Shown in pieces: positions 3,601-41,146 of a stretch of 64,000 bases of DNA. The notes beneath the pieces were generated by a model. That model did no database searches, was not told the origin of the DNA, and worked only from the letters and a program-made list of their open reading frames with translations. This DNA comes from an uncultured virus (IMG/VR IMGVR_UViG_3300006409_000029) (lineage: Duplodnaviria; Heunggongvirae; Uroviricota; Caudoviricetes), in the IMG/VR virus record IMGVR_UViG_3300006409_000029. One strand, 5' to 3'. Numbering within the stretch: the first letter of the stretch is position 1; every line of letters starts with the position of its first letter. Both the position numbers and the translations under genes were made by a program.

Positions 3601-4150
3601 TGCTCTCTCCATAAGCGAATTGCTCAGCAAGAAAGCCGAGGTGAGGGCCGAGGATGTCCTCGGCCTGGCGGATGAGCTTATCAGGGAGGCAGCCCTCTCC
3701 CTCGCCAGTGCGATAGCTCTCGCTGACGAGCTATCGAAGGCGATGGAGGTCTTCAGGGAGGATGTCGCTGGCCTGGCTGATGCCCTCGCTGCCGAGATAG
3801 GTTACATTCTCTCATTGGACGATACGGCGACGATTAGCGATGCGCCATCGTTGGGAGTGGCGCTATCCATCCTGGATTCTGCCTCCCTTGCCGATGTGCT
3901 ATCGCGAAGCATAAGTCTGTATGCCTCAGACCTGCTCTCCGTCCTGGATGCCATTATCGAATTCAGGTGGTATATCTATCTCCTCCAGGCGCTCACCCTC
4001 ACCGACAGCATATCCAAGCCCGTTCTCAAAGGGCCACAGGCGCCAGAGGAGAGGCACTTCGTCGTACCCGCCGAGGACAGAGCGCCAAAGGTGCCGGAGG
4101 ATACCCGCCTGTTTGTGGTACCCGCCGAGAACAGGGTCATCTATGCCTAG
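2..4150 (+). CDS. Giant virion fibre-like protein, 5' partial: 41-aa beta-propeller repeats, Fn3-like domain, long 18-aa repeat stalk
   Basis: Frame +2 is open from base 2 into the listed ORF 821-4150. It reads LSADxxxDKHYKHSGFSATIVSSYASPxxxPxG(L/I)TWDGTNV five times, then PTSLLCEQQTNP..PEFS..YRIQV..WDSG..YYWRIKFWD..WS (Fn3/rhamnosidase N-terminal-like), then xDxLxLxDxL repeats. It ends in two F-V-V-P-A-E-x-R motifs. Confidence 0.8.
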   Translation, partial: LSADFSADKHYKHSGFSATIVSSYASPSSIPTGLTWDGTNVLSADTNTDKHYKHSGFSATIVSSYASPSSSPRGITWDGTNVLSADSDTDKHYKHSGFSATIVSSYASPSTLPKGITWDGTNVISADATADKHYKHSGFSATIVSSYASPYSSPEGITWDDTNVLSADTTADKHYKHSGFSATIVSSYASPSSIPSGLTWDARYANQAPSAPTSLLCEQQTNPVNVTDPTPEFSAIYNDPDTGDIANKYRIQVSTDSTFSTVTHWDSGAAGTTMADTSEGTRSPDIVYAGSTLTEGNTYYWRIKFWDDDGAEGAWSTEEAYFYVPNQFQVSLADTSTTSDAVKKRASLKRTDSATLSDAPKKTASLKRADSAALSDSVEKAPRLKRTDSAALSDALKKRAQLKKTDSAALSDALKKAPRLKRADSAALSDSVEKAPRLKRTDALGLSETLWRAMQSKLADSVGATESLSKDFRLSRSDTLALADALSKTLKIPFSEALSLVDALKKRPSKKLSDTAALSDAFDLTITIKALDSLALSEASWRGIGLSPADTLSLTEALKKDISTFPTDTLALTEAPEKTIGLSYTDTLSLTEALVKDVSLLRAETLSLSDLLKKRVSLPLAESIALTEALSKGVTLPFAESVGLTDASWRGIGLGPTDTLSLAEALKLTIDLSYADTVSLAEAIAKDVTLPRDDTLTLSDLLKKRVSFPLADALALADSISKRPGPELADTLALADALTRTIGLGPSDALALADALKRDAQLLRADSLALADTVSKLSSLFPAEAVSLTDTLSKGLTLPFSEALSLSDLAKLGIGLFPAEALALTDAVVRDMELSQADSLALAEAIAKSFTLPTADALTLADSISKEPQPGLSDSLALADALIRAIGVGPTDALALADALIKDIGLSQAETASLADTLLKDISSKLPDSVTLADEETRDVGLSATDTISIADDILKAFTLSAADTLALADAISKTLQLAQAEALALSDALSKLLSLSYADSVGLSDLLELTLGKGVAIADSLAVSESLVRDIGLGLTALVSLAEALRRDVDLSVQDTAALADTLYKYPAKALADTAALAESLSKLPGVQLSDVTTLADALDRTAGLGLSDALALIDALIKAPSLSKADSIALDEALSKDADVALFDTMALVEALRTTTGIGLADSLALAEALIQDIGLRSTDTIALTDALAKGIELSADDALSISELLSKKAEVRAEDVLGLADELIREAALSLASAIALADELSKAMEVFREDVAGLADALAAEIGYILSLDDTATISDAPSLGVALSILDSASLADVLSRSISLYASDLLSVLDAIIEFRWYIYLLQALTLTDSISKPVLKGPQAPEERHFVVPAEDRAPKVPEDTRLFVVPAENRVIYA
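1000..3950 (+). repeat. Degenerate 54-bp (18-aa) coding repeats, roughly 50 copies
   Basis: Examples are LKRTDSATLSDAPKKTAS, LKRADSAALSDSVEKAPR and SDTLALADALSKTLKIPF. Confidence 0.9.
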
Positions 4151-8401: not shown

Positions 8402-9697
8402 CTAGGTAAAGTATCCCCATACCCTTATCCAGCACTGCATAGTCCCGGCGCCCGAAGCATTGATGGTATAGTAGACATCCCCCTGGAGGTCGGTATTCAC
8501 AATCCCCAACTGGCTCACCGTCACCGCCCCAGGGGGCCTGGCGACTATCTGATATGCGTTAGAAGACGAGGGCCCCATCGAAAACTCCAATCCCGCCGTG
8601 CCCCAGGCGGCGCTGTCCTTTGCGATTAGCTCTATCAGGTATGCCCTGATGTGGCTGGTATCGCTCGGCGCCCCGCTGAAGGTGGACATGTCGAGCTGGG
8701 TGGCCGCCGTATCCGAATAGGCATCCCCGTCCCAGCTCGTATGCGTCCAGGGGGCATCGAGGGGATGAAACCGCGCCCCGGCGGTCATGTAGCCCCAGAC
8801 CTCTATCCAGACATCCAGCGTGCCCGTGCCGGACGCATCTATCCTGTAGAACAAATCCCCCTCCGGGCTGGCCGGGCAGAGCAGCGACTTGTAGACCATC
8901 AAGTCCCCGCCTGGCGGCCTGACCGCCGCCGCATACCAATACGCCGAGGACGGCCCCAGGGCGAGATAGAGGCCATCCGTTCCGGCTGTTGCGCTGTCTC
9001 TCGCCGCCAGCTTCAGGAGATATGCCCTGATGTGACTGGTATCGCTCGGCGCCCCGCTAAAGGTGGACATGTCGAGCTTGGTGGATGTCAGCACGTCCGA
9101 CTTGGCATCCCCGTCCCAGCTCGTGTGCGTCCAGGGCGACTCCAGCGGGTGGAAGCATGGCGAATCATATGTAAAGTACCCCCAAATATAGATATGGGCA
9201 TCGAGGGTCAGCGAGCCGGAGGCGTTTATCGTGTAATACAAATCGCCGTCCTCGTTCGCCGACACGATGGCATCGTTCTCCGCCCATATATCTCCTCCCC
9301 AGGGCCTCACGAGGGCCTGGTCCCACTCGGCGCTGGATGGCCCCAGGGCGAGGTAAAGGCCATCCACAGGGAAGGTGGCGCTATCCCTGGCGACCATGCG
9401 CACGGCATATGCCCTGATGTGGCTGGTATCGCTCGGCGCCCCGGTGAAGGTGGATATGTCGAGCAGCGCCGGGGTCAGCACGTCCGACTTGGCATCCCCA
9501 TCCCAGCTCGCATGTGACCAGGGCGATGGCAGGGGATGGTAGTAGAGCAGCTCATCCCCCATGACCACCCGCTTATTGCCCTTCGCCGTGCCGAGATAGA
9601 ACTTAAGCGAGTCGGTGCAAAGGGCCGGCTCCCCCTCTTGCAGGGAGGGGAGGTTGGCCTCGACCCCCCGCTTAATCTTGAGAGATGCTACCGCCAT
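8402..9697 (-). CDS. Tail fibre/receptor-binding protein: Mtd-N/hyaluronidase-N-like anchor plus three ~128-aa repeated domains
   Basis: KIKRGVEANLPSLQEGEPALCTD; three copies of HPL..PW.H.SWDGDA..STF.GAPSDTSHIRAY..WGY. Confidence 0.8.
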   Translation of the reverse strand: MAVASLKIKRGVEANLPSLQEGEPALCTDSLKFYLGTAKGNKRVVMGDELLYYHPLPSPWSHASWDGDAKSDVLTPALLDISTFTGAPSDTSHIRAYAVRMVARDSATFPVDGLYLALGPSSAEWDQALVRPWGGDIWAENDAIVSANEDGDLYYTINASGSLTLDAHIYIWGYFTYDSPCFHPLESPWTHTSWDGDAKSDVLTSTKLDMSTFSGAPSDTSHIRAYLLKLAARDSATAGTDGLYLALGPSSAYWYAAAVRPPGGDLMVYKSLLCPASPEGDLFYRIDASGTGTLDVWIEVWGYMTAGARFHPLDAPWTHTSWDGDAYSDTAATQLDMSTFSGAPSDTSHIRAYLIELIAKDSAAWGTAGLEFSMGPSSSNAYQIVARPPGAVTVSQLGIVNTDLQGDVYYTINASGAGTMQCWIRVWGYFT

Positions 9698-18028: not shown

Positions 18029-18057
18029 AAAAGGGGAATGGGCCAGGCCCATTCCCC
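18029..18057 (-). terminator. Intrinsic terminator before the tape measure gene
   Basis: 11-bp stem GGGGAATGGGC/GCCCATTCCCC followed by TTTT on the minus strand. Confidence 0.7.
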
Positions 18058-18073
18058 AGTTGCGCATACATGT

Positions 18074-18455
18074 CTACTCTTGCTGCTGGCGAGCCTTCCG
18101 GAGAAGGTCGCCGAAGGTTTGTGGCCGACGGCCCGGCTCTCTTCTACAGAAGTCCTGAATCGCAGCGGCGGCCTCCTTACTTCCCATCCCCGCTGCCACC
18201 GCCACGCTCACGGACTCCAGCTCCCAGGCTTTCTCCGCGTGCTGCCATTCCCTCGTGAGGATGGCGGCATGGAGGGCCTGGGGCAGTGTAAGTTTGTCCA
18301 GCGTATAATCTGGTGCAAAGAAAAACGGTGGCCCCGCCAGGAGCAATATCAGCTCGTCGAGGTCGTCTCCCCAGCCGAGGTCTCTCCAGCCCTCGCGAGG
18401 ATGCCCTGCGCCAGGACGCTTTGCAGCGCTGGCATCAGAGGGGCGAAAAAATTTT
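18074..18455 (-). CDS. Tail assembly chaperone, -1 frameshift extension (gpGT-like)
   Basis: Lies in the -1 frame of ORF 18349-18804 and is entered at GAA AAT TTT TTC. Confidence 0.7.
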
Positions 18456-18804
18456 CTATCAGCGCCTTGGCCCACTTGCCCCCGTTGATGTCTATGCATA
18501 CTTTGAGGGCGTGTTCTATCTCCGGCTCAGGCGCGTCGAGAAGGTGCTCCCTCTCTAAGTCGGGGATGACGAGATTGAGTATCCTGTAGAGGATGTCAAA
18601 CCCGACCCCCAGGACGGACGCACCCTCATCCATCCAATCCGGCTTTGGAGCATCCGACTCGGCGAAGTAATCCACTATGCTCTTCAGCTCCTCCTCGAAC
18701 TCCAAATACCGGCGGAGGGGCTGGGGCCTGACCTCATATTCGACGCCCCCGACGGTAATTATCACCGTTTCGGGTCGCCATATCTTCTTGCGCTTTTGGG
18801 CCAT
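18349..18804 (-). CDS. Tail assembly chaperone (gpG-like)
   Basis: Between tube and tape measure genes; ITVGGVEYEVRP. Confidence 0.8.
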   Translation of the reverse strand: MAQKRKKIWRPETVIITVGGVEYEVRPQPLRRYLEFEEELKSIVDYFAESDAPKPDWMDEGASVLGVGFDILYRILNLVIPDLEREHLLDAPEPEIEHALKVCIDINGGKWAKALIENFFAPLMPALQSVLAQGILARAGETSAGETTSTS

Positions 18805-19823
18805 TAAACCTCCATATTGACCCGTCTTACCATAAGTTGGCTACTTATCCAGGCGGGCTGTTTAGTTTGACGCAACTTGCCATAGACATTTCGGTATCTA
18901 TAAGAATTCCTATATTTTCCGCATAATTGTCCTATATCGCCGTCCGGGGAGCCAATCAGGATGCCTTTCCTTAAGCCGAAAACTATACCTCCGCCATAAG
19001 GTTTTCTTATGCCGCCCTTGTCAGGGGATGCACGTTGAAGTTGCCGTCTGACCGCACGGTAAGAATCATCAACCACCAAAAAGACACCCGGCTCCACTTT
19101 AAGCCCCATCCCCACTTCACAAGCCAAGGCTAATGCATCAGAGCAATGGGACTCAAAAGCATCAATAGACTTATCACTAACCTTGGGATAGCAATACTTT
19201 TCACGAAATGCTGCTGTCTCCCAACCGCGAAATTCATGCAAAGTAACGCCACGCTCGGCAAAGAAACAGCGCAATTTTTTCTTTCCAACCTCTGCCGTAG
19301 TAACATCTACGTTCCGGTATTGTTTCATAAAGCTAAAACGAACGTCCTCTAATCCCACTATATGAATTGGATACAGATAAAATAACTCACGTAAAATCTT
19401 CAAGCGTGAGTTGACGATTACCAATTGCGATGGTGTTATTCCCTCCTTATATTTACGATTTCGATAGCGATGCTTCCGGCGACGACATTTACGTTTGCGT
19501 CGTGTTCTGCGCAATTTATGCCGTTTCTTTATCTTGCGAGCAATCTCCTTTTTGTTGGGTAGATTTAGTTTGATTGCTAGATTATTTTCATTTCCACAAA
19601 CCACTGCATAGCCTTCATATTTTGAACCAGGGTCTATACCTAGGGTAGTTTGTGGAGTTTCCCGACGGGTCTCAACCAGCAATTGAATACCAAAGGTGCC
19701 AAACTTACTCCAAGTGGGCTTGGCAACGCCGCCCTTTAGCAACTTACGTGCTTTAGCTGGAGTCGTAGGCGTCAATGGTGTTCCATCTTTCGCCAAAACG
19801 AAGACGGTGTGCTTTGCCGACAT
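18804..19823 (-). CDS. isrB: IsrB-like OMEGA RNA-guided nickase (IS200/IS605 family, RRXRR domain, no HNH)
   Basis: PLMP-type N-terminus (VFVL..DG.PLTPT), RuvC-I GIDPGSK, Arg-rich bridge helix, RuvC-II GLEDV, RuvC-III SHCSD; no HNH; 339 aa from the AGGAGG-preceded ATG; lower GC than flanks. Confidence 0.85.
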   Translation of the reverse strand: MSAKHTVFVLAKDGTPLTPTTPAKARKLLKGGVAKPTWSKFGTFGIQLLVETRRETPQTTLGIDPGSKYEGYAVVCGNENNLAIKLNLPNKKEIARKIKKRHKLRRTRRKRKCRRRKHRYRNRKYKEGITPSQLVIVNSRLKILRELFYLYPIHIVGLEDVRFSFMKQYRNVDVTTAEVGKKKLRCFFAERGVTLHEFRGWETAAFREKYCYPKVSDKSIDAFESHCSDALALACEVGMGLKVEPGVFLVVDDSYRAVRRQLQRASPDKGGIRKPYGGGIVFGLRKGILIGSPDGDIGQLCGKYRNSYRYRNVYGKLRQTKQPAWISSQLMVRRVNMEV

Positions 19824-19834
19824 TCGGCCTCCTA

Positions 19835-20078
19835 TTTGGAGTATTCTCTCCTCGACAATGCCAACAAGAGGCGTGTCGCCCACCATGCAGAGGCGGGCCT
19901 CCCAGGGCGAGGCTGGGCGCCTTCAGAGCTTGGAGCTGGAGAAGCACCCCAAGGTGAATATCCTCTTGTGGCGTAGTGCCCAAAGCACTTAGTCTAGTCA
20001 CCTCTTAACGGAGCCTCGCCTCTCCGCGCCGCCTGTTTAAGCAGCGGCAGGTAACTCATAGCAATACAGTCCACCTCA
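19835..20078 (-). ncRNA. omega RNA (HEARO-like) upstream of isrB, with predicted 5' guide at about 20059-20078
   Basis: Minus strand AGTTACCT..AGGTGACTAGACT..CACTACG..ACCTTGGGGTGCTTCTCCAGCTCCAAGCTCTG..GCATTGTCGAGGAGAG resembles HEARO/omega scaffold hallmarks; boundaries approximate. Confidence 0.8.
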
Positions 20079-20083
20079 TGTTA

Positions 20084-20704
20084 TTATTGTTCGATGTCAT
20101 ACGCATACACATACTCGCCCGTCTCCGGGTCCTGGATTGCCTCATCCGGGTAGACGTTCCACTCCACAGGGAATCCCTGTGGGTTGTCCCTGTCCCAGGC
20201 GATGGCGCTATCCGACCCAGAGCGTCGCACCTTCGGGAAGACCGTCATTATCAGCTTGAACGGCGTCGGCGCCGTCTCGTCCAGGTGAAGCACCGCCAGC
20301 CGTCGGTCGCCCATCTGCTTGGTGACGGTGTAGTACGTGACGGTCTCGGCAGCGGCATTGGTCTTGGTGGTCAAATCCACTCCCGCCACTGCCTCTTTCA
20401 CATCCTTGGTGCGCTCAGCGAGCGTGGTGGCTACTCTGATATTGTAATCGCCCACATAGTCCGCCACCCGACCGTGTTGCTGCGTCCGAACCGGGATGGC
20501 ATCCCAGCCATGCGTCATGGTGACGGCCTCGATGGTATCGCCCAGGCTCGTCCATCCGGTGGCAGCGTTATATGTGGCGAGGTTCACCACGTCGCTGATT
20601 TGCGTGGGCGGCTCTGTGGTATCGAAATCGGCTATAAAGATTCGGGCAGGCCCGATTTTTATAGCTTCGGGATTGTACTTGTAAACGGTTTCTCTTGTAG
20701 GCAT
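20084..20704 (-). CDS. Major tail tube protein
   Basis: IKIGPARIFIA..WTSLGDT..; size and synteny. Confidence 0.85.
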   Translation of the reverse strand: MPTRETVYKYNPEAIKIGPARIFIADFDTTEPPTQISDVVNLATYNAATGWTSLGDTIEAVTMTHGWDAIPVRTQQHGRVADYVGDYNIRVATTLAERTKDVKEAVAGVDLTTKTNAAAETVTYYTVTKQMGDRRLAVLHLDETAPTPFKLIMTVFPKVRRSGSDSAIAWDRDNPQGFPVEWNVYPDEAIQDPETGEYVYAYDIEQ

Positions 20705-32466: not shown

Positions 32467-34758
32467 CTATCTCTGATTAAAGCGATTATGCCGGTAATAA
32501 ACCTGCTCGATGGCCTCGGCTATCACCCTGGCGCAATCCTCCCAGTTGAAATCTTCGGCCCTCTTGAGGCTGGCCTCGCTCATCTTAGCCAGTATATCAC
32601 CCTTTTCCCTTAAGCGCAAGAGGAGCTGCGCCAGGTCGGTATAGCTTATCTGAGCCAGCCTCACCCCGGTATGCCAGTGGGTGATGGCCGAAGGCTTGAG
32701 CAGGACGCCCACATCCGGGGTGACGATTTCATTGCGCACCCCATCGTAGGTAGCCACGATGGGGAGGCCGCAGGCCATCGCCTCCACCAGCGGCAGGCCG
32801 AAGCCCTCGACGCTCTCCGGCGCCACATAGAGGTCGGCGCAGTTATACCTCTCCACCAGGCCATAGCCAGCCATCGGATGGATGGCCCCCTCTATCACGC
32901 CGGCCTCCTTGACGCCATACTCTTGGGCGAAGAGCACTGGCGGAAATCTCACCATCCCCCGCAGGTTGTAGGACTCGGCCAGGTGGAGCAGGGGTATCGG
33001 CTGATAGCCGCTCTTCTCGATGGGATTGGTGTGGATGTAGAAGAGGAAATCGGTATGCCCTCGCGAGGCCAGCCAGCGGGCCGCCTCTATCAGGATGCCC
33101 TGGTTGGAGGTGCGCTTGTTACGCTTGACATTCATCACCACGAAGAACTTATCCAGCCCAGCCTGCTCCCGAAGCCTGCGGCGCTCCTCCTCCGGAAGCC
33201 TCCTGAAGACCTCCCTGTCCACGCCATGCCATGCCCACCGAAGGCGGATGGCCCCAAGGCCGAGGGCCTTCCCGGCCATCTCAAACATCTCCACGCCCCA
33301 CTGCGTGTAGGTGATACACTCTCCTCCCCGCGCCTTGATGCTGCTCGCCATCTCCAGGAAGATACGAGGAATCGGAATGCCCTCGATTGGAAAATAAACC
33401 ACCACCGGCCACTCGCTGATTCGCTGCCATATCTTCTGAACGGTGCCTGGGTCATAGTTGATATAGATTACATCTGGTTTGTAAAAGTCCAAGAATTGCT
33501 CCAGCATGTAGAGGCCGCTGGGGTCGTACTCGCATGGGCGCCAGACCGGGAAGGGGTCTTCCATCGGGCGCGGACATGTATCCAGCATCCCGATGGCCGC
33601 CAGCTCGAAGCCCCACTCCTGCCAGTACCGGGAGACGTTCTTCGTCACCACCCCGAAGCCCGTGGTGAGCGTGGGGGAATCGGACAGGATGGCGACCTTT
33701 ATCCTCTTCGGCTTGACGGCGGGCCAGATTTTCGCCCTGTCGCCTCCGATAATCACACGAGGCTCCTCCAAAACCTCGACGAGCTGGCGGCCAATCACCT
33801 TCAGGTCATACTCCTTGGCTTTCTGCCGGAGGGCGGCGGCATATTCCACCCTAAACGCATCATCGGTGCATAGCCTCCTTAGCCTCACTAACGCCTCCTC
33901 TTTTGTTCCCCAAGTCAAAGCGCCGCCCTCCGGCATCCCACCCGAATCGTGCACCAACGCGGCCACTCCAGCGGCCATCGCCTCCTCGACGATGATGCCC
34001 CTGTGCTCGGCCATGCTTATATCCTGGGCCTCGAAACCAGTGGCCGAGAAGAGGATGGAGGCCCTCTTCATGAGATTGATATAATCCTGGCGGCTCAAGT
34101 CGTGGTGGAAGTAGATGGGCTTCCTGATGGCCTCTGCCTGGCGCTTGATGCGCTTGAAATAGTCCTCATGCTGCACGCTGCCCACCAGGTGAAGCTCCCA
34201 GCCGGGGACATCTAGCTTCTCGAACAACTCCAAGGCCACATCGTGGCGCTTGTTGTTGCCGGATGGCACCTCGAAGAACCTCCCCACGACCAGGATGATT
34301 TTCTCTTTCTCGCCTGGAGGCTGAAATTCCCCCCAGTTGATGGGCGGATAGATTACGATGGCGTCATCTCTATTCCACCTCTTCGAGACCGCCCAGGCGC
34401 AGAACTTGCTGTTAGCGATGATGACCTGATAATCGCTCACATCCCAGCGATATTGCGGGAAGAAAGTGACCAGGACGTTCAGCCTGGCTAATCCCCCATA
34501 CTTGATAAAATGGGAGATATTGATAAAGACATCGAACTCCCTGGGGTCGTAGACGCCTGAATAGACCCAGCGGGTGTTGCTCAAGTCCAGGCCATAGTCC
34601 TCCCTGGCTTTGTCGAACATGGGCAGGACGCCACGCTCGACGACGGCCAGGACTTCGTAGTGCTCGTCAAGGGCCTTCAGGAAGGAGAAGGTGTGATATT
34701 CGCCTCCGCCATATCCTCCCTGAGCGCCTACATGCCCGCAATAGACCATCAGTTTCAT
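32467..34758 (-). CDS. Double GT-B (GT4) glycosyltransferase
   Basis: Two Ex7E motifs: EHRGIIVEEAMAAG and EGFGLPLVEAMACG. Confidence 0.9.
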   Translation of the reverse strand: MKLMVYCGHVGAQGGYGGGEYHTFSFLKALDEHYEVLAVVERGVLPMFDKAREDYGLDLSNTRWVYSGVYDPREFDVFINISHFIKYGGLARLNVLVTFFPQYRWDVSDYQVIIANSKFCAWAVSKRWNRDDAIVIYPPINWGEFQPPGEKEKIILVVGRFFEVPSGNNKRHDVALELFEKLDVPGWELHLVGSVQHEDYFKRIKRQAEAIRKPIYFHHDLSRQDYINLMKRASILFSATGFEAQDISMAEHRGIIVEEAMAAGVAALVHDSGGMPEGGALTWGTKEEALVRLRRLCTDDAFRVEYAAALRQKAKEYDLKVIGRQLVEVLEEPRVIIGGDRAKIWPAVKPKRIKVAILSDSPTLTTGFGVVTKNVSRYWQEWGFELAAIGMLDTCPRPMEDPFPVWRPCEYDPSGLYMLEQFLDFYKPDVIYINYDPGTVQKIWQRISEWPVVVYFPIEGIPIPRIFLEMASSIKARGGECITYTQWGVEMFEMAGKALGLGAIRLRWAWHGVDREVFRRLPEEERRRLREQAGLDKFFVVMNVKRNKRTSNQGILIEAARWLASRGHTDFLFYIHTNPIEKSGYQPIPLLHLAESYNLRGMVRFPPVLFAQEYGVKEAGVIEGAIHPMAGYGLVERYNCADLYVAPESVEGFGLPLVEAMACGLPIVATYDGVRNEIVTPDVGVLLKPSAITHWHTGVRLAQISYTDLAQLLLRLREKGDILAKMSEASLKRAEDFNWEDCARVIAEAIEQVYYRHNRFNQR

Positions 34759-34976
34759 GTTACTGTCTCCGGCTTGTATGGAGAGTAGGAGGCCCGCACG
34801 TGCACCTTCAGGGGCTCACGGGCCATCACCTCCAGTAGAGGCATCCGCCGCCCCTCCTTATCATAGATAACGATGCTGAACAGCTCCTCGGTATCCAGGG
34901 GCGTGAGGTCAACGTGATACTCCCACTCGCCGTGGGCCTGGTCGTATGAGTGCCACTCTCCGAGTTTTACTGCCAT
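34755..34976 (-). CDS. Small hypothetical protein
   Basis: Overlaps both neighbours in the operon. Confidence 0.6.
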   Translation of the reverse strand: MAVKLGEWHSYDQAHGEWEYHVDLTPLDTEELFSIVIYDKEGRRMPLLEVMAREPLKVHVRASYSPYKPETVT

Positions 34977-35677
34977 AACAATTCCTCTTCGACATAACAT
35001 GATGGAAGCCTGCGGACGGCATACTTCCGTCCGGTCAGGTCGCCCGGCTTCTCGAAGCCGGAGCCATACATGGATAGATATTGCGATTCCTTCTCGGCCA
35101 GCCGCTTCTCATCGAGCCAGCCGAGATGGAGGATTCCCACATTGAAATCGGCGATTTCATCGTCGAGAAACTCGATTAGCTGCCCGCCGGATAGCTTCAT
35201 CACGTGCTCGTGCACCTGTCCCACCCATCGCAGCCTCTCATCAGCCCTCCACACCCTCGGCCAGGTCTCCCATCCCCCGTGAGAGGCGGCGTAGTGAGAC
35301 TTGTCGCTGACAATATTGTATTGCTTGACCCTCACCGCCACAATCTCAGGCGGGAGATTTCGCAAAGCCTGCCTGAACCACGATTTGTACCGTGCGGGAA
35401 AAATCTCGTCGCTGTCAATCCTCATCCACCACCACTCCTCGCCACGCGGGGCGTGGTCAAATGAAACCTGTCTTTGCAACGCAAAGTGGCCTGGCCACTT
35501 GTGCTCAACGAGTTTGATGTTTAGGATGCCCTTTTGCCTATGGATGATATTCAGCGTCTCGTCCTGAGAACCGCCGTCCACAATGGTCACGTGATTTGCC
35601 AGGCCATGAAGCGACTTCAGACACGCCAGCAGGGTATCTTCGTTGTTCAGGACTATCATCGTGACAGCTAATTTCAT
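34967..35677 (-). CDS. GT2 glycosyltransferase (resembles protein/peptide-glycosylating type)
   Basis: IV.NNE..L..CL.S, VDGGSQD, F..QR, IDSDE, W.G.VHE. Confidence 0.85.
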   Translation of the reverse strand: MKLAVTMIVLNNEDTLLACLKSLHGLANHVTIVDGGSQDETLNIIHRQKGILNIKLVEHKWPGHFALQRQVSFDHAPRGEEWWWMRIDSDEIFPARYKSWFRQALRNLPPEIVAVRVKQYNIVSDKSHYAASHGGWETWPRVWRADERLRWVGQVHEHVMKLSGGQLIEFLDDEIADFNVGILHLGWLDEKRLAEKESQYLSMYGSGFEKPGDLTGRKYAVRRLPSCYVEEELLWQ

Positions 35678-36426
35678 TTGGCTAACTCCGGGTACTTCTT
35701 GATGAGCTTAAGCCAGTTGGGATGGGTCTGGCCCGGATGCTCCCTATCGAACCGCCTGAGCACCCTATCACGCCAGGAGCCCTGGCTCTCGCTATCGTCC
35801 ACCATCATCGGGATGCCGTTCGCCAGAACGACCTCCCCTCCTGCCTCGACAAGGCGGATGCCGAAATCCCTGTCGGCGAAGCCCATGCTTAAATCAAACT
35901 CCTCGTCAAAGCCGCCCACCTTCTCCACAAGCGAGCGAGGACACGACATCCCGGCGCTTGTGACCCAGGAGGCCGGCCCCTCCCGACGAATCTCAAACGG
36001 GATGAGGTAGTAATGCTTGGCGACCCTATTGGCGAGATGAGGAACCAATACACAATTCGGAATAAAGGCATGGTATAGCTGAATAAGGAAGAGCGCGTGG
36101 GGGTGGAATATCAAATCATCGTCGAGGAAGAGGATAACGTCGTTATGGGTATGGCGGATGGCTATATTGCGGGAGCTATAGACCCTGGGAAGGTCATCGG
36201 GGTGACGCTCGCGATAGATGTACTCGGCCTTGAAGGGGAGGGAGCCCCAGTCTATGGAGAAACCCACCTGGGGCTGCGAGCCATCGTCCACCACGCAGCA
36301 GTCCAAATGCTCGAATCTAAAGAAGAGCTGCTCCGAGAGCTGGCGGACGACCCTGGCGAGGGATTGAGGGCGATTATAGGTGGCTATCACGACGCTAATG
36401 CTCGGAAGCTCTAACGTATACGGCAT
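35674..36426 (-). CDS. GT2 glycosyltransferase
   Basis: SVVIATYNR, VDDGS, RN, FLDDD, GGFDE. Confidence 0.9.
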   Translation of the reverse strand: MPYTLELPSISVVIATYNRPQSLARVVRQLSEQLFFRFEHLDCCVVDDGSQPQVGFSIDWGSLPFKAEYIYRERHPDDLPRVYSSRNIAIRHTHNDVILFLDDDLIFHPHALFLIQLYHAFIPNCVLVPHLANRVAKHYYLIPFEIRREGPASWVTSAGMSCPRSLVEKVGGFDEEFDLSMGFADRDFGIRLVEAGGEVVLANGIPMMVDDSESQGSWRDRVLRRFDREHPGQTHPNWLKLIKKYPELAK

Positions 36427-37460
36427 CACTTCTCCTCCAGTAACGCTAAATACTGACTGGCTAATCGCCTCCCGGCCATCTCCGAGGACAGAAGATTTAC
36501 GGCCCGATGTCTGTTGAACACCCCCATCCTCTGCTGAAGGACGGGGTCTGAGAGGATGAGCTGGAGGCGCTCGTGTAGAATATCCCACCGCCTGCATGGG
36601 ATGATGAAGCCCCCCTCCGGCCTCACTATCTCGTGGAAGGCGCCGACGCCGGTGGTGATGACCGGCAGTCCCGAAGCCATAGCCTCGGTCACTGCCACCC
36701 CCCACTGCTCGACCCAGGCCCTCAGAGGGTCGTGGGAGAGGAGCGGGAGGCTCACCAGCACGAATACAGTGGCCTCCTGATAGATGCCCGGCAAATCCTC
36801 GTGGGGCACAGCCCCCAGGAAGCGGGCGCTCACCTCGTATTCCTCGGCCATCTGAGCGAAGACATCTATCCGCCCATCGCCGACGACCCAAAGCTCGGCA
36901 TCCAGCCCGGCCATCGCCCAAATCAGGTCTTGGATGCCCTTCTCCAGGGTCACGCGGGCCACGGTGAGCACTACCCTGGTATCGGGCACAAAGGGCAGTG
37001 GCGCAAACATGTCGGTATCCACCCCTGGGGAGATGACCCGGATTTTATCCTTCGGCACGCCCTCCAGCAGGAGGACGTTGGCGGCCATGCTGCTGCGGGC
37101 GATATAGAGGTCGAAGGCGCCCTGCCAGGCCAGCCCTCCCGTCTGCCTGTTCTTTCCGGGGAGGTTATCGAAGCAGGAGCACACCAGGCGCGTCCCCGGC
37201 TCGGCCCTGGACGCGCAGTACCGCGTCAGGGCATAGTGGAGGTCGGGCAGGTCTAGGATGGTCGGCTCAAGGGATAAGACCTCATCCGGGTGCTTCCAAT
37301 AGACCATCTCGGCACCCTCCATCCTCTCGCCGCCCCTCAGCTCCACGGCGATGATGACCTCGGCCTCGACGCCCTCCCGCTCCAAGGCGTCGGGTAGCGA
37401 TTGATAAGTCATAAGGTCATGCGGGCTAAACTTGTCAGGGCGAGCGATTACGATACGCAT
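36426..37460 (-). CDS. GT4 glycosyltransferase
   Basis: GVDT, VAR..EKG, EQWGVAVTEAMASG. Confidence 0.9.
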   Translation of the reverse strand: MRIVIARPDKFSPHDLMTYQSLPDALEREGVEAEVIIAVELRGGERMEGAEMVYWKHPDEVLSLEPTILDLPDLHYALTRYCASRAEPGTRLVCSCFDNLPGKNRQTGGLAWQGAFDLYIARSSMAANVLLLEGVPKDKIRVISPGVDTDMFAPLPFVPDTRVVLTVARVTLEKGIQDLIWAMAGLDAELWVVGDGRIDVFAQMAEEYEVSARFLGAVPHEDLPGIYQEATVFVLVSLPLLSHDPLRAWVEQWGVAVTEAMASGLPVITTGVGAFHEIVRPEGGFIIPCRRWDILHERLQLILSDPVLQQRMGVFNRHRAVNLLSSEMAGRRLASQYLALLEEK

Positions 37461-38161
37461 CAGGCTCCTTTCGTCCCGTTATGGCCCTCTTTGTCGGGCC
37501 GTAAGGTGAAATGATAGACGACGGCGGTGGAGTATCCCACCTTGAAGCCGGCCCGCTGGGCAGCTCGGCAATACTCACGGTCGCTGCCGATATGGGGATA
37601 ATTCTCCTCGTCCAGAAGGCCCACCTTCTCTAGCACGTCCTTGTGTATCCCCATCACGGCCCCGGTGACCCACTCATACCAGTTACGGCAGCGCCTCGGC
37701 TCGAAGTAGCTGATATTGGGCTGCCTCATCCCGTAGTGGAAGCCCTCCCCATAAGCTCCGGCGTGGTCAATCCTCCCATCGGCGGTGAGGGTCTTGCAGC
37801 CGACGATTCCCCACCTCAAGACCTCGGCCTGCCCCACCATAATCTCGGCCCATCCAGGCGTGACCTCGGTATCGGAATTGAGGAGGATAAACCAATCATA
37901 TCCCCCATCCTGCCGGGCCAATCTCAGGCCCTCGTTGCACGCCTGGGTGAACCAGAGACGCCTCTCCACGAGCCTTCCGGTGAGGCGATTGAAATTATCC
38001 CCTAACCAGCGGATGAGGCCCTCGGTCTCTGTATCCGTCTCCCCTGAGACGATGTAGGCGTGCCAGGGGAGACAGGTGTGGAGATAGAGGGATTCCACAC
38101 AGGCGGCCAGGTGCATGGCATCCTTATAACTGGGAATGATGATAGCGACATTTCTCACCAT
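37460..38161 (-). CDS. GT2 glycosyltransferase
   Basis: IIIPSY, ACNEG, LLNSD, VTGA, VGLLDE. Confidence 0.9.
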   Translation of the reverse strand: MVRNVAIIIPSYKDAMHLAACVESLYLHTCLPWHAYIVSGETDTETEGLIRWLGDNFNRLTGRLVERRLWFTQACNEGLRLARQDGGYDWFILLNSDTEVTPGWAEIMVGQAEVLRWGIVGCKTLTADGRIDHAGAYGEGFHYGMRQPNISYFEPRRCRNWYEWVTGAVMGIHKDVLEKVGLLDEENYPHIGSDREYCRAAQRAGFKVGYSTAVVYHFTLRPDKEGHNGTKGA

Positions 38162-39126
38162 ACGAGACCCGCCTTCACCTTCTCGGCCAGCTTGATGTAC
38201 TCCCCCGCCATGCGCCAGTGATTGAACCACGAGACGGAGCGGCGACACTCATAGGGATTTATCTCGTCAATGTGGCTCAGCGCATAGGCATAATCATCGA
38301 GGCTATAGCAGATGTAGCCATTGCGCCCGCTCTGGATGTACTCCGGGAGGCACCCATTATCGCTCGCGAGCACCGGCGTCCCGCAATGGAGTGCCTCCAG
38401 GACGATTATGGCCCCCGCCTCGACCCATCCGGTACCGCCCACCGGGTGGATTAAAGCCTTCGCCCTCATGATAAGCTCCAGCTTCTGCTGGCCGCCCACA
38501 TCCCCCATGTAGATTATCTTGTCGCTGTCGAGATGGGGCTTGATGGCGTTTCTGAAATACTCCGGCACCCAGGCAGGCCCGCAGATGATGAGCTTATGCC
38601 TGCACCTCTTCGCCACATCAATGGCGATATGGGCCTGCTTCTCCGGGATGACGCTCCCCATGTAGAGGAGATAGTCCTCCCTCTCGCCGAGGTAGAGAGG
38701 ATACTCCCCGGCGCGGATGCCATAGTAAATCACCTTCGCCTCCTCCATCTTGAGGTGGCGGCGCTGAGCATAGGAGATGCAGACGACGTTATGGGGCCAG
38801 GAGAGGCTCATGACCTGATAGACGTTTATCGAGGGGAAGTTGGGCCAGAGCCTCGGAATCACCTTGTCGTGGCTCATGTCAATCAGGGCATCGAGCCTCT
38901 TGTGCCACTCGCCCGCCGCAAAAGCGTGGGCGAACTGACGCTCCGATAGCGTGACGGCCTCCAGCTTCCCGCCAGGCGGGGCCTTGGAGCCCTCCTTGGC
39001 GAAGAGTGTAACATTATGTTGCATTTGGGAGAGGGCGCAGCAAAGCCACCAGGCTATCCGCTCAATCCCCCCATAACGCTCAGGCGGCGTGGGTATCGCC
39101 GCCGTGGAAATCACTCCTATTTTCAT
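38155..39126 (-). CDS. GT4 glycosyltransferase
   Basis: PP..YGGIER, EAGAIIVLEALHCGTP. Confidence 0.9.
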   Translation of the reverse strand: MKIGVISTAAIPTPPERYGGIERIAWWLCCALSQMQHNVTLFAKEGSKAPPGGKLEAVTLSERQFAHAFAAGEWHKRLDALIDMSHDKVIPRLWPNFPSINVYQVMSLSWPHNVVCISYAQRRHLKMEEAKVIYYGIRAGEYPLYLGEREDYLLYMGSVIPEKQAHIAIDVAKRCRHKLIICGPAWVPEYFRNAIKPHLDSDKIIYMGDVGGQQKLELIMRAKALIHPVGGTGWVEAGAIIVLEALHCGTPVLASDNGCLPEYIQSGRNGYICYSLDDYAYALSHIDEINPYECRRSVSWFNHWRMAGEYIKLAEKVKAGLVW

Positions 39127-39374
39127 CCTCCGCCCTCCCCTTTCGAGAAGGGCAGCAGTTGGTCTGCCCCCTCGTCCTCCTCGATGGCCTCGTCGCAATG
39201 GCCGGGGTCAATCAAGTCCAGCAGCCAGCAGAGCCACTGGTAAGGTGGAACTTTGTCCCTGAACTTCCCCAGCCGGGAGGAAATCGTCTCATCAGGGTCG
39301 CCGAGGAGGATTGCATTGAGAAGCTGGTCGAAAGCTGTGCATACATTTATGATATACTTCTTTATCTTACTCAT
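39123..39374 (-). CDS. Small conserved phage protein
   Basis: DQLLN..GDPDETISSR.GK..L..IDP.HC is a recurrent phage motif of unknown function. Confidence 0.75.
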   Translation of the reverse strand: MSKIKKYIINVCTAFDQLLNAILLGDPDETISSRLGKFRDKVPPYQWLCWLLDLIDPGHCDEAIEEDEGADQLLPFSKGEGGG

Positions 39375-39375
39375 C

Positions 39376-39795
39376 TCACCTCAGTATCTTTATACACCCT
39401 AAGAACTCTGTGCGGAAACCGAATTGACACACCAAATCTATCCTCCTGTGCCTGGTGAAGGTAATCAAAGGGCCGCGATGCCTGCCCACCACGAAGGTGA
39501 AAAACCAGGCATCGCATGGCACGTTCGGCCTATCCAGCTCTATCCGCAGCCAATACTCGCCGCTTCCCCGATAGACCCTCTCGGATAGCTTCCAGTAAAA
39601 CCTATACGTCGAGAGGAGCTTGCAGCCAGAGGCCACAAGCAGGGAAGCGATGAGCGCAATTAAGATTAGCCTTCTCACGGCGATTTGAGGCTCAAAAACA
39701 GGAGCACTATAAAGACTGCGAGCGAGCCTAAGCCCACTCCCAAGCCGAACGCCCCGATGACCACAAACCAACACGGAGCACCAAGCATATCTCAC
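39376..39795 (-). CDS. Hypothetical protein, possibly membrane-associated
   Basis: Fills the operon gap; hydrophobic segment; start uncertain. Confidence 0.45.
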   Translation of the reverse strand: MRYAWCSVLVCGHRGVRLGSGLRLARSLYSAPVFEPQIAVRRLILIALIASLLVASGCKLLSTYRFYWKLSERVYRGSGEYWLRIELDRPNVPCDAWFFTFVVGRHRGPLITFTRHRRIDLVCQFGFRTEFLGCIKILR

Positions 39796-40574
39796 CTCCC
39801 GTATTTTACTACTGGGTTGACCCAGCCCTCGTTGGGATTCTTTCCCACAATCTCGGCCAGCTCCATGTTCACCGAGGAGGTGAATCTCTTTAGCTCCTCG
39901 GTGGTCATGGCCGCAAGCTCGTAGACGGTGGGTATCCTCCTCTCCGGGGGAGCTTTCTTATTGTAAATCCCCAGGCCATACCACTTCTTCCGCCCGATTT
40001 CATGCCATTTCATATCTAAAAGGAGCTTATTTCGGGCGGAGTAGGCATGGTAAAAAGGAGGCTTCTTGCTGTAATCCCTCGGAGGATGGAATACGCTGAC
40101 ACGCGGGTCAACCAACACCCGATAACCACGCCACTCTATCTCATATCCCAAGTCCAAGTCAAACCACTGCGTAAAGATAAAATCCTCATCGCACAGCACC
40201 TCTGTCTCCAGGCGGATGACGCCGGCGATGCCATCAAACCACTTCGGAAAGGGGGAGGCCAACGGCTTCCGAGGCTCTCCCTCCCTGTTCGGCCTGATGA
40301 GGCCGACCTCCGGATGGCGGGAGATGTAGTTTAACATCGTCTCAAGATACTCCTGATGAACTATCTCCACATCGCAGTGGAGAAAGTGGACGAATGTGGC
40401 CTTCGTCATCTTGAGGACGGTGTTCCACACCCTCGGCTCGTGGTTCAGCTCCGGCCACCAATAAACCGGGAAGCCGGGGTAGAGAGACCGCAGGCGGTTC
40501 TCCAATCTCTGGGCCCTCTTCTTGTCCCATCCTAAGATGCATATAGAGCACAAAGGGCTAGGTCTCTCCGCCAT
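39792..40574 (-). CDS. GT2-like glycosyltransferase
   Basis: SICIL, WN, FLHCD, DEDF..D.D..GYRV..V.H pattern. Confidence 0.75.
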   Translation of the reverse strand: MAERPSPLCSICILGWDKKRAQRLENRLRSLYPGFPVYWWPELNHEPRVWNTVLKMTKATFVHFLHCDVEIVHQEYLETMLNYISRHPEVGLIRPNREGEPRKPLASPFPKWFDGIAGVIRLETEVLCDEDFIFTQWFDLDLGYEIEWRGYRVLVDPRVSVFHPPRDYSKKPPFYHAYSARNKLLLDMKWHEIGRKKWYGLGIYNKKAPPERRIPTVYELAAMTTEELKRFTSSVNMELAEIVGKNPNEGWVNPVVKYGR

Positions 40575-41146
40575 ACCTCCTCTTTAACTCCTCCAGGGCC
40601 AGGCGGCGATGCTGCTCCCTGGTGAGGTCGCGTATCTTCACGCCATGAGACTCGCCGAGGTTGTAGACGCAGCACCACACCGCGGAGCACAATCTGTATC
40701 GAATATCCATACATGCCAGGGGTATTGACCAATATCCACCCCGGCGGGGCGGAAAGTGCCACCAGGCACTTTTTCCCATCCGGGCTGAGATACTCGTTCC
40801 AGGGAAGGTCGGTGCGGATATTCGATACCACGAGGTGATTGTTGTACCAAAGCTCATAGATGCGGGGAACTCCGTCGTGCAGGAAGAAAAGCTCCCCACG
40901 CTCATCGGTATTGCCCGCCCAAATATCCACAGGGGCCAGGACACCCGGCCTGTGGCTCGTCTGAAGGACGAAGCGAATATTGATGGCGGGCTTCCCATCG
41001 GGCCAGGTGGCATAGATGCGAATGTATCTATTATGCCCCTGCCTGGATGTCTGAGCATTGTATCGTGTGATTTTGACTTCCTTCACGCCAGCGATGCCGT
41101 AGATATAGGGATTGAATTCGGGTTTATCGGTCTCGATTTTGTCCAT
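40532..41146 (-). CDS. Hypothetical beta-rich protein
   Basis: ORF with GAGG RBS, in operon. Confidence 0.6.
   Translation of the reverse strand: MDKIETDKPEFNPYIYGIAGVKEVKITRYNAQTSRQGHNRYIRIYATWPDGKPAINIRFVLQTSHRPGVLAPVDIWAGNTDERGELFFLHDGVPRIYELWYNNHLVVSNIRTDLPWNEYLSPDGKKCLVALSAPPGWILVNTPGMYGYSIQIVLRGVVLRLQPRRVSWREDTRPHQGAASPPGPGGVKEEVWRRDLALCALYAS

Follow-up and report, generated by a model that had tools for sequence, protein, structure and literature searches.

The stretch of DNA analysed here (64,000 nucleotides, referred to as the window) carries an isrB gene, from a group of small RNA-guided DNA nickases related to Cas9, and its omega RNA inside the tail operon of a phage, lodged between the tail tube gene and the tail assembly chaperone gene. 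The explanation to which we give about half of our belief is that of a stranded, probably target-impaired passenger: a non-autonomous IsrB element of the IS200/IS605 family (20055..18816, 1240 bp) would once have been inserted by a transposase acting in trans, and would since have lost the recognition ends by which that transposase could move it.

The IsrB gene, its omega RNA and their phage setting

The window covers the majority of a phage genome, with terminase, Mu-like portal, protease, capsid, neck, tail and tail-fibre genes all encoded on the minus strand. A further record, G002, is identical across the overlap and contributes 11,170 further bases, giving a total of 75,170, near the longest contig on record (75,810); the nearest record, G001, shares its length and match coordinates with G002 and is thus not independent evidence. 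Upstream of the element lies a 206-residue gene (20084..20704, minus strand; stop codon 20086-20084) that probably encodes the tail tube (major tail) protein, as suggested by its position between the neck genes and the chaperone gene and by a PHROG match (2175/21417, E 1.3e-11), and whose transcript would carry the guide. Downstream, the 151-residue tail assembly chaperone gene (18349..18804, minus strand) has a weak match to PHROG 1442 (E 0.0043) and a homolog after the tube gene in the related phage L020, and the tape measure gene is located farther downstream. The chaperone ORF and an overlapping 141-residue ORF in the -1 frame (18074-18804, minus strand) resemble a G/GT frameshift pair that L020 conserves, with slippery heptamers at 18454 and 18451; a strong terminator-like hairpin (18033-18057, minus strand; 11 pairs and a U tail) separates the GT ORF from the tape measure gene. 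A promoter scan returned three sites against 1.9 expected, none of them inside the spacer. Several repeats of about 120-190 bp, 83-91% identical, occupy the window start (1-603), and the phage also encodes at least six glycosyltransferase-like genes, methyltransferases, a large lectin-domain protein and two Mtd_N tail-fibre genes (window 32467-41146 and L056 14378-15523).

The gene of the element (18804..19823, minus strand) encodes a 339-residue protein that is an IsrB by its architecture, comprising PLMP, a split RuvC, a bridge helix and a TI domain. Pfam RRXRR matches it (PF14239, E 1e-35) and no HNH family does, in agreement with the original prediction of an HNH-less IsrB with its RuvC D/E/H/D residues intact. 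Indeed, D64, E159, H226 and D229, which we take to be the RuvC catalytic residues, are all present and are conserved in 118, 119, 119 and 119 of 119 relatives, respectively, so that the inactivated RuvC of TldR type is absent here. The bridge-helix arginines, which bind RNA, are intact as well. The base composition of isrB (GC 0.45, GC3 0.41) stands apart from that of six neighbouring phage genes (GC3 0.70-0.81), and the nearest relative of the protein is 65% identical. The closest solved relative is DtIsrB (8dmb; sequence E 5.6e-42, fold E 1.9e-19 with a predicted model of pLDDT 60.9), with which the window protein is colinear across residues 7-289, having no insertion between RuvC II and RuvC III. 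As reported for this OMEGA nickase, the two systems are alike in size, in the PLMP-RuvC-BH-TI layout without HNH, in the upstream omega RNA with a Shine-Dalgarno sequence (SD) at its 3' end, in the guide predicted from the 5' flank and in the putative NTG-type motif at the 3' flank (PMC9581776).

The omega RNA scaffold that had been proposed between the tube and chaperone genes is borne out by its covariance model: Rfam HEARO (RF02033) matches 20055..19841 on the minus strand over the full model with 89.8 bits (gathering score 83; E 6.9e-17), and it is the sole Rfam match within the window. The scaffold region (19824..20055, minus strand), whose stems were traced pair by pair, is at the same time a degenerate transposon end, and its 3' part holds the SD of isrB itself. 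Pairing is complete in the S1 stem (20055-19997, 7 pairs), the SL2 stem (20027-20008, 6 pairs) and the kissing loop (20020-19906, 7 bp), and double changes relative to L011 preserve the pairing of the scaffold stems. In the omega RNA alignment, 91% of the cells of the S1 helix are paired; the scaffold fold has a z of -2.15, with 4 of 200 shuffles equally good. The scaffold start at 20055 was set by position 1 of the Rfam model and by alignment with eight relatives, and therefore the predicted guide, its length of 20 nt being borrowed from DtIsrB (PMC9581776), would be phage intergenic DNA immediately 5' of the element (20056..20075, minus strand). The original prediction likewise placed the guide in the DNA after the tube gene, and its register moves by 2 nt, from 20077..20058 to 20075..20056.

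Loss of the two transposon ends

The element was compared with seven genome loci and nine viral loci, eight close ones among them having a full 3' end (L010, L012 and L014-L019, without a usable or close 3' end, were left out of the 3' counts). In all eight, the ORF enters a C-rich hairpin with TAA or TGA in its loop, followed by a T-x-y-C guide and then by an ATG motif 18-21 nt past the hairpin foot (ATGGA in six, ATGAA in one and ATGTC in one). Base y of the guide covaries with the fourth base of the motif (C with G, T with A, A with T), the pattern expected if TnpA pairs guide and cleavage bases (PMC3201880); the register of this pairing was fitted on these same loci, and for some of them the pattern gave more than one candidate. 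Alignment to the eight relatives places a gap in the window element where the end hairpin and guide bases would be; coding homology ends near codon 333, and a short stretch at 18816..18830 (minus strand) is probably the remnant of the 3' transposon end. A profile of this end scored 8.3-39.4 bits in 23 of 26 relatives, against a background maximum of 3.4 over 71 tiles, and had no match in the window element, although it also missed three relatives whose hairpins are plain by eye. Alignment and profile thus agree with the earlier claim that a right-end hairpin is absent. The argument given for it, that there is no room for one, falls away, since in the relatives the hairpin overlaps the ORF end or directly follows it.

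At the 5' end, all eight resolved relatives (L005 was left out of the count, as its 5' end could not be resolved) start with GTCA, have CTTG or CATG after SL1 and, under the same fitted register, form three of three guide pairs. The window element starts with GTTA and has CGCG after SL1, and only one of the three guide pairs is Watson-Crick, two having been lost. No other GTTA-type omega RNA with an IscB or IsrB gene was found among 42 motif matches in viral contigs, 40 of which also lack an Rfam match. S1, SL2 and the kissing loop still pair in the window element, so that the substitutions which removed the DNA signals of the transposase left the RNA fold in place.

Comparison with relatives therefore shows that both transposase recognition ends are lost, neither end having the features of a mobile IS200/IS605 element. 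The transpososome is reported to need both guide and cleavage sequences (PMC3201880), and excision to be ablated by a scrambled end or by a mutated TAM or guide (10.1101/2023.03.14.532601). Because excision needs both ends as well as TAM and guide, and both ends are degenerate here, the element is very probably immobile, as the original prediction had also held; TnpA could then neither excise nor copy it. As had been noted, there is no sign of tnpA: a six-frame search of G002 found none, and neither did Pfam among 94 ORFs of the window and 13 from the added stretch. In lacking tnpA, in bearing its omega RNA at one end and the putative TAM beside the other, and in its co-orientation with the upstream gene, the element is like the non-autonomous IS200/IS605 elements described for iscB and isrB (10.1101/2023.03.14.532601); unlike them, it has its 3' hairpin and guide deleted and its 5' guide/cleavage pairing broken, and it is present as a single copy in the 75-kb phage. 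If the element is a passenger, it offers a snapshot of an OMEGA system after end loss, in which the DNA signals for the transposase decay and the RNA pairing survives.

The chaperone junction and insertion at start codons

The isrB stop codon (18806..18804) and the chaperone ATG have base 18804 in common, the overlap that was originally described, and GGAGG, the chaperone SD, lies at 18813..18809 within the final isrB codons. The likeliest TAM and insertion motif, positioned by inspection, is the ATGGA at 18811..18815 (minus strand), which would lie outside the element and overlap GGAGG, and which fits the motif of six of the eight close relatives. We favour this TAM at 18815, with a native GGAGG, with fair confidence, because the empty site would otherwise be without an SD near the chaperone start. 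GGAGG is where the original prediction put it, and is more likely to be native phage DNA now read by the isrB frame than a site supplied by isrB: deletion of the 3' hairpin would have let the frame run on into native DNA and stop at the chaperone start. In the alternative, the TAM would be the chaperone ATG itself at 18804 and the SD would derive from the element end, as in L004 and L006. Both junction readings yield the guide followed by ATGG as the target. An ATG at 20059 would likewise be in frame with the chaperone gene.

Embedding in the tail operon and coupling to it had been described in the original prediction; the arrangement is confirmed, and comparison with the family shows nothing special in it. 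Twenty-six relatives have a complete ORF, namely the eight close ones and 18 from a viral motif scan (123 loci, 113 distinct, 22 with an IscB or IsrB start, 18 with a complete ORF), a set chosen for an intact 5' end. In 19 of these 26 intact relatives, an ORF of 99 or more codons starts with the ATG of the target motif, and in seven the element's own stop overlaps that ATG. Co-orientation of iscB with the upstream gene is published and has been attributed to the need to transcribe the guide (10.1101/2023.03.14.532601). Operon coupling is thus a common habit of intact family members and no sign of domestication. Start-codon insertion of this kind explains how iscB and isrB elements are tolerated inside operons; we did not find it stated in the paper texts searched, and supplementary lists of ends or TAMs may bear on it. 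Among the 113 distinct viral loci with an omega-type 5' end (L099-L221), those other than the 22 with an IscB or IsrB start may be gene-less, of tnpB type or without stored DNA. SD-like sequences are visible within the guides of many relatives (L004-L013, L100-L174).

By the same family logic, the window element would have been inserted beside ATGG(A) in the spacer that separates the tube and chaperone genes, in the orientation of the operon, and late transcription would yield the guide together with the omega RNA. Tail expression need not be disturbed, because the element is co-oriented, its frame is open and the downstream SD is intact.

Changes in target-facing residues and possible roles of the element

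The window IsrB differs from its relatives at 15 of 127 near-invariant positions, compared with a mean of 4.5 across 119 relatives that were selected by likeness to the window protein, only one of which reaches so high a number (16); the excess has a z of 4.3 once divergence at variable sites is allowed for. Seven of the 15 changes fall in residues 164-179, the HNH linker (N164S, H165F, W170R, G171N, F174V, S175T and I179V), a clustering matched by none of 5000 shuffles and by no relative, whose maximum is four. The codons show separate substitutions, and a frameshift as the origin of the linker changes was rejected. All 119 close and all 43 distant proteins have phenylalanine at position 174. 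OgeuIscB, the IscB of the solved structure 7xht, shares RFSFM at residues 162-166 with the window protein, which speaks against reading too much into the linker changes. Position 317 is an arginine in every one of the 119 close proteins and in 35 of the 43 distant ones, and a leucine in the window IsrB; it aligns with R323 of DtIsrB, the TAM-reading arginine, and either R323A or deletion of the HNH linker abolishes nicking by DtIsrB (PMC9581776). The linker is reported to bind the guide-target duplex and to be the sole region of IsrB without scaffold contact (PMC9581776). Relative to DtIsrB, then, the window protein has Leu at R323, a remodelled linker (equivalent to V161-F174), Tyr at the positions of F119 and R124 and Ser at that of N265, differences known here from sequence. 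R318, adjoining L317, could take over TAM reading.

Several points count against the passenger reading: the protein has otherwise kept 112 of the 127 conserved positions and an open frame, its changes are clustered, unlike the scatter of pure decay, and the scaffold has gone on pairing through double changes. Its root-to-tip distance (1.97) is not raised, lying inside the range of 1.78-2.54, and it branches early, so that lineage difference may explain part of the residue excess. As judged from these alignments, the window IsrB is altered where it meets its target, in both the HNH linker and the TAM reader, and has probably lost efficient TAM-dependent DNA targeting. On the passenger reading, the ribonucleoprotein (RNP) probably still assembles, because scaffold pairing and RNA-binding residues are kept, TAM-dependent targeting would be inefficient or lost, and the element would persist as a tolerated passenger.

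A tentative alternative, which we think unlikely yet worth weighing, is that the element is an active RNA-guided nickase behaving as a free-standing homing endonuclease: in a mixed infection, it would nick element-free relatives at the guide plus ATGG(A), and recombination would copy the element in without any transposon ends. The original prediction had named such homing, or interference, as a role. The intact catalytic residues and bridge-helix arginines are in its favour, as are the fully paired S1, SL2 and kissing loop, given that the IsrB pseudoknot pairs are required for nicking (PMC9581776). The probable target motif still adjoins the element, and ATGG is accepted as a substrate TAM by DsIsrB and BbIsrB (PMC9581776). 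There is also a precedent in T4 MobE, a nicking, free-standing phage homing endonuclease whose promoterless gene lies inside a conserved phage operon, and in whose manner a nick could drive inheritance without transposase (PMC2790892); the window element differs in having an RNA-guided RuvC instead of HNH and in that its target would be its own empty site. The leucine at the R323 equivalent and the changes at F174 and six further linker sites count against nicking.

The distribution of sites weakens the homing nickase further. An element-free relative does exist, in that L020 (tube 71% identical) has the tube and chaperone genes without isrB, but its 255-bp tube-chaperone spacer is unrelated to that of the window and lacks the guide. 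No empty site, joint or variant was seen in contigs of four of the nine DNA runs containing the stretch, contigs being prone to drop rare variants and so no proof of absence, and both element junctions are bridged in runs X1 (possibly the source itself), X3 and X4. Neither an empty site nor a guide-bearing element-free site was found among viral contigs, and the guide region gave matches of E about 4 at best against GenBank phages, again with no empty site; the search of related phages that had been suggested for it thus came back empty in L020, viral contigs and GenBank phages alike. Searches of viral contigs with the tube and chaperone genes returned this phage and L020 only, no tube relative was found among GenBank phages, and 22 metagenome loci from a tube-alignment scan were set aside as short matches of 36-40%. 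An unrelated viral contig of 172 kb (L043) has 19 nt identical to the guide within its gene for a family B DNA polymerase (1501-1519). This match was likewise set aside: it is followed by AAGCC, not NTG, and does not extend, and about 0.3 such matches are expected in the viral contig collection, presumably some 50 Gb in size, so that it is taken as chance. Were the element still nicking, it would be an RNA-guided, transposase-free phage homing nickase, and would test whether a single nick suffices for OMEGA spread.

Less probable is a repurposed RNP, in which selection would have preserved the RuvC site together with the omega fold and RNA binding, and remodelled just the contacts to a double-stranded target. 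The product would either bind single strands independently of a TAM or, bound to its scaffold, regulate the tail mRNA that carries the omega RNA, acting on its processing, stability or downstream translation. It would account for the changed TAM reader, for the clustering of changes in the linker, the only region off the scaffold (PMC9581776), and for the loss of transposase guide bases through changes that preserve RNA pairing; moreover, IscB without its TAM-interacting domain is reported to become RNA-targeting (PMC13284715). The parallel would be TldR, domesticated TnpB repressors in prophages that are likewise phage-borne, have lost their transposon ends and kept the RNA scaffold (10.1101/2023.11.30.569447). 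The window protein is, however, an IsrB and not a TnpB, with an intact and not a dead RuvC; it has no accessory gene, belongs to no conserved clade with sister loci, and its guide is not aimed at a promoter elsewhere but merely equals its flank. A single lineage is seen, with no sister element having the same ends among the 42 motif matches and none in L020, and operon coupling is a family habit. The best second guide site in the 75-kb genome (L056:9651) agrees with the guide at 10 of 12 seed bases and has ATGGG next to it, with one mismatch adjoining the motif; 2% of shuffled controls and 1.7% of natural ones contain a comparable site, with cut-offs chosen afterwards, and as a second target it is not convincing. 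The regulation of tail expression offered in the original prediction is unsupported here.

We regard as rather improbable, too, that this is an IsrB in the course of domestication, one that still has its omega fold, a surface for binding RNA and its RuvC site, and that has discarded its ends and remodelled the TAM reader and the duplex-gripping linker on the way to a TAM-independent single-strand-targeting or mRNA-embedded regulatory RNP of the tail operon. No domesticated or phage-retained IsrB was found in the literature searched, most subscription papers being outside its reach. If repurposed, the element would be to IsrB what domesticated TldR is to TnpB, and would offer a naturally occurring variant of the TAM reader. 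Finally, it is very improbable, and largely refuted, that the element is a recent IS of ordinary kind whose ends work but have an unusual sequence and which a host TnpA mobilises. In favour of such an IS, GC3 is low (0.41) with no amelioration, most iscB elements lack tnpA and about 1.5% have one (10.1101/2023.03.14.532601), and an imperfect hairpin of 13 pairs can form at about 18821-18857. Against it, that hairpin is at chance level (12 of 200 shuffles), falls within conserved coding sequence and breaks the guide rule, the nearest relative is only 65% identical, no GTTA-type omega RNA with IscB or IsrB is seen elsewhere in viral contigs, and no second copy was found, the identical intact copies that the original prediction had named as evidence for such an IS being absent.

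Several further observations concern these loci. A junction-like motif has four matches in the window against 1.47 expected, one of them being the locus itself. The site at L056 9651-9675 (in G002, beyond the window) lies 54 nt into a 177-residue ORF, with a consensus-like promoter about 290 nt upstream (9345-9375). A 79-residue truncated IsrB occurs on a 70.8-kb contig, its tail corresponding to the gene read in a shifted frame at base 677, and two IsrB variants differ at 4 of 339 and at 3 of 213 residues. These forms are weak evidence for the passenger reading: chimeras occur in these data, a fused tube protein being on record too, and the truncated form may be an assembly chimera. In L020, the spacer (3625-3879) is GC-rich and hairpin-rich, occupies the same tube-chaperone position and has no Rfam match; the tube-chaperone site may be an insertion hot spot. 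Two further stretches of L020 (1-1315 and 1846-2946) hold a reverse transcriptase gene (RVT_1, E 4.6e-18), preceded by a repeat-like stretch reminiscent of a diversity-generating retroelement, and a gene for a zinc-finger/Vsr-like nuclease, which directly precedes the tube gene on the opposite strand.
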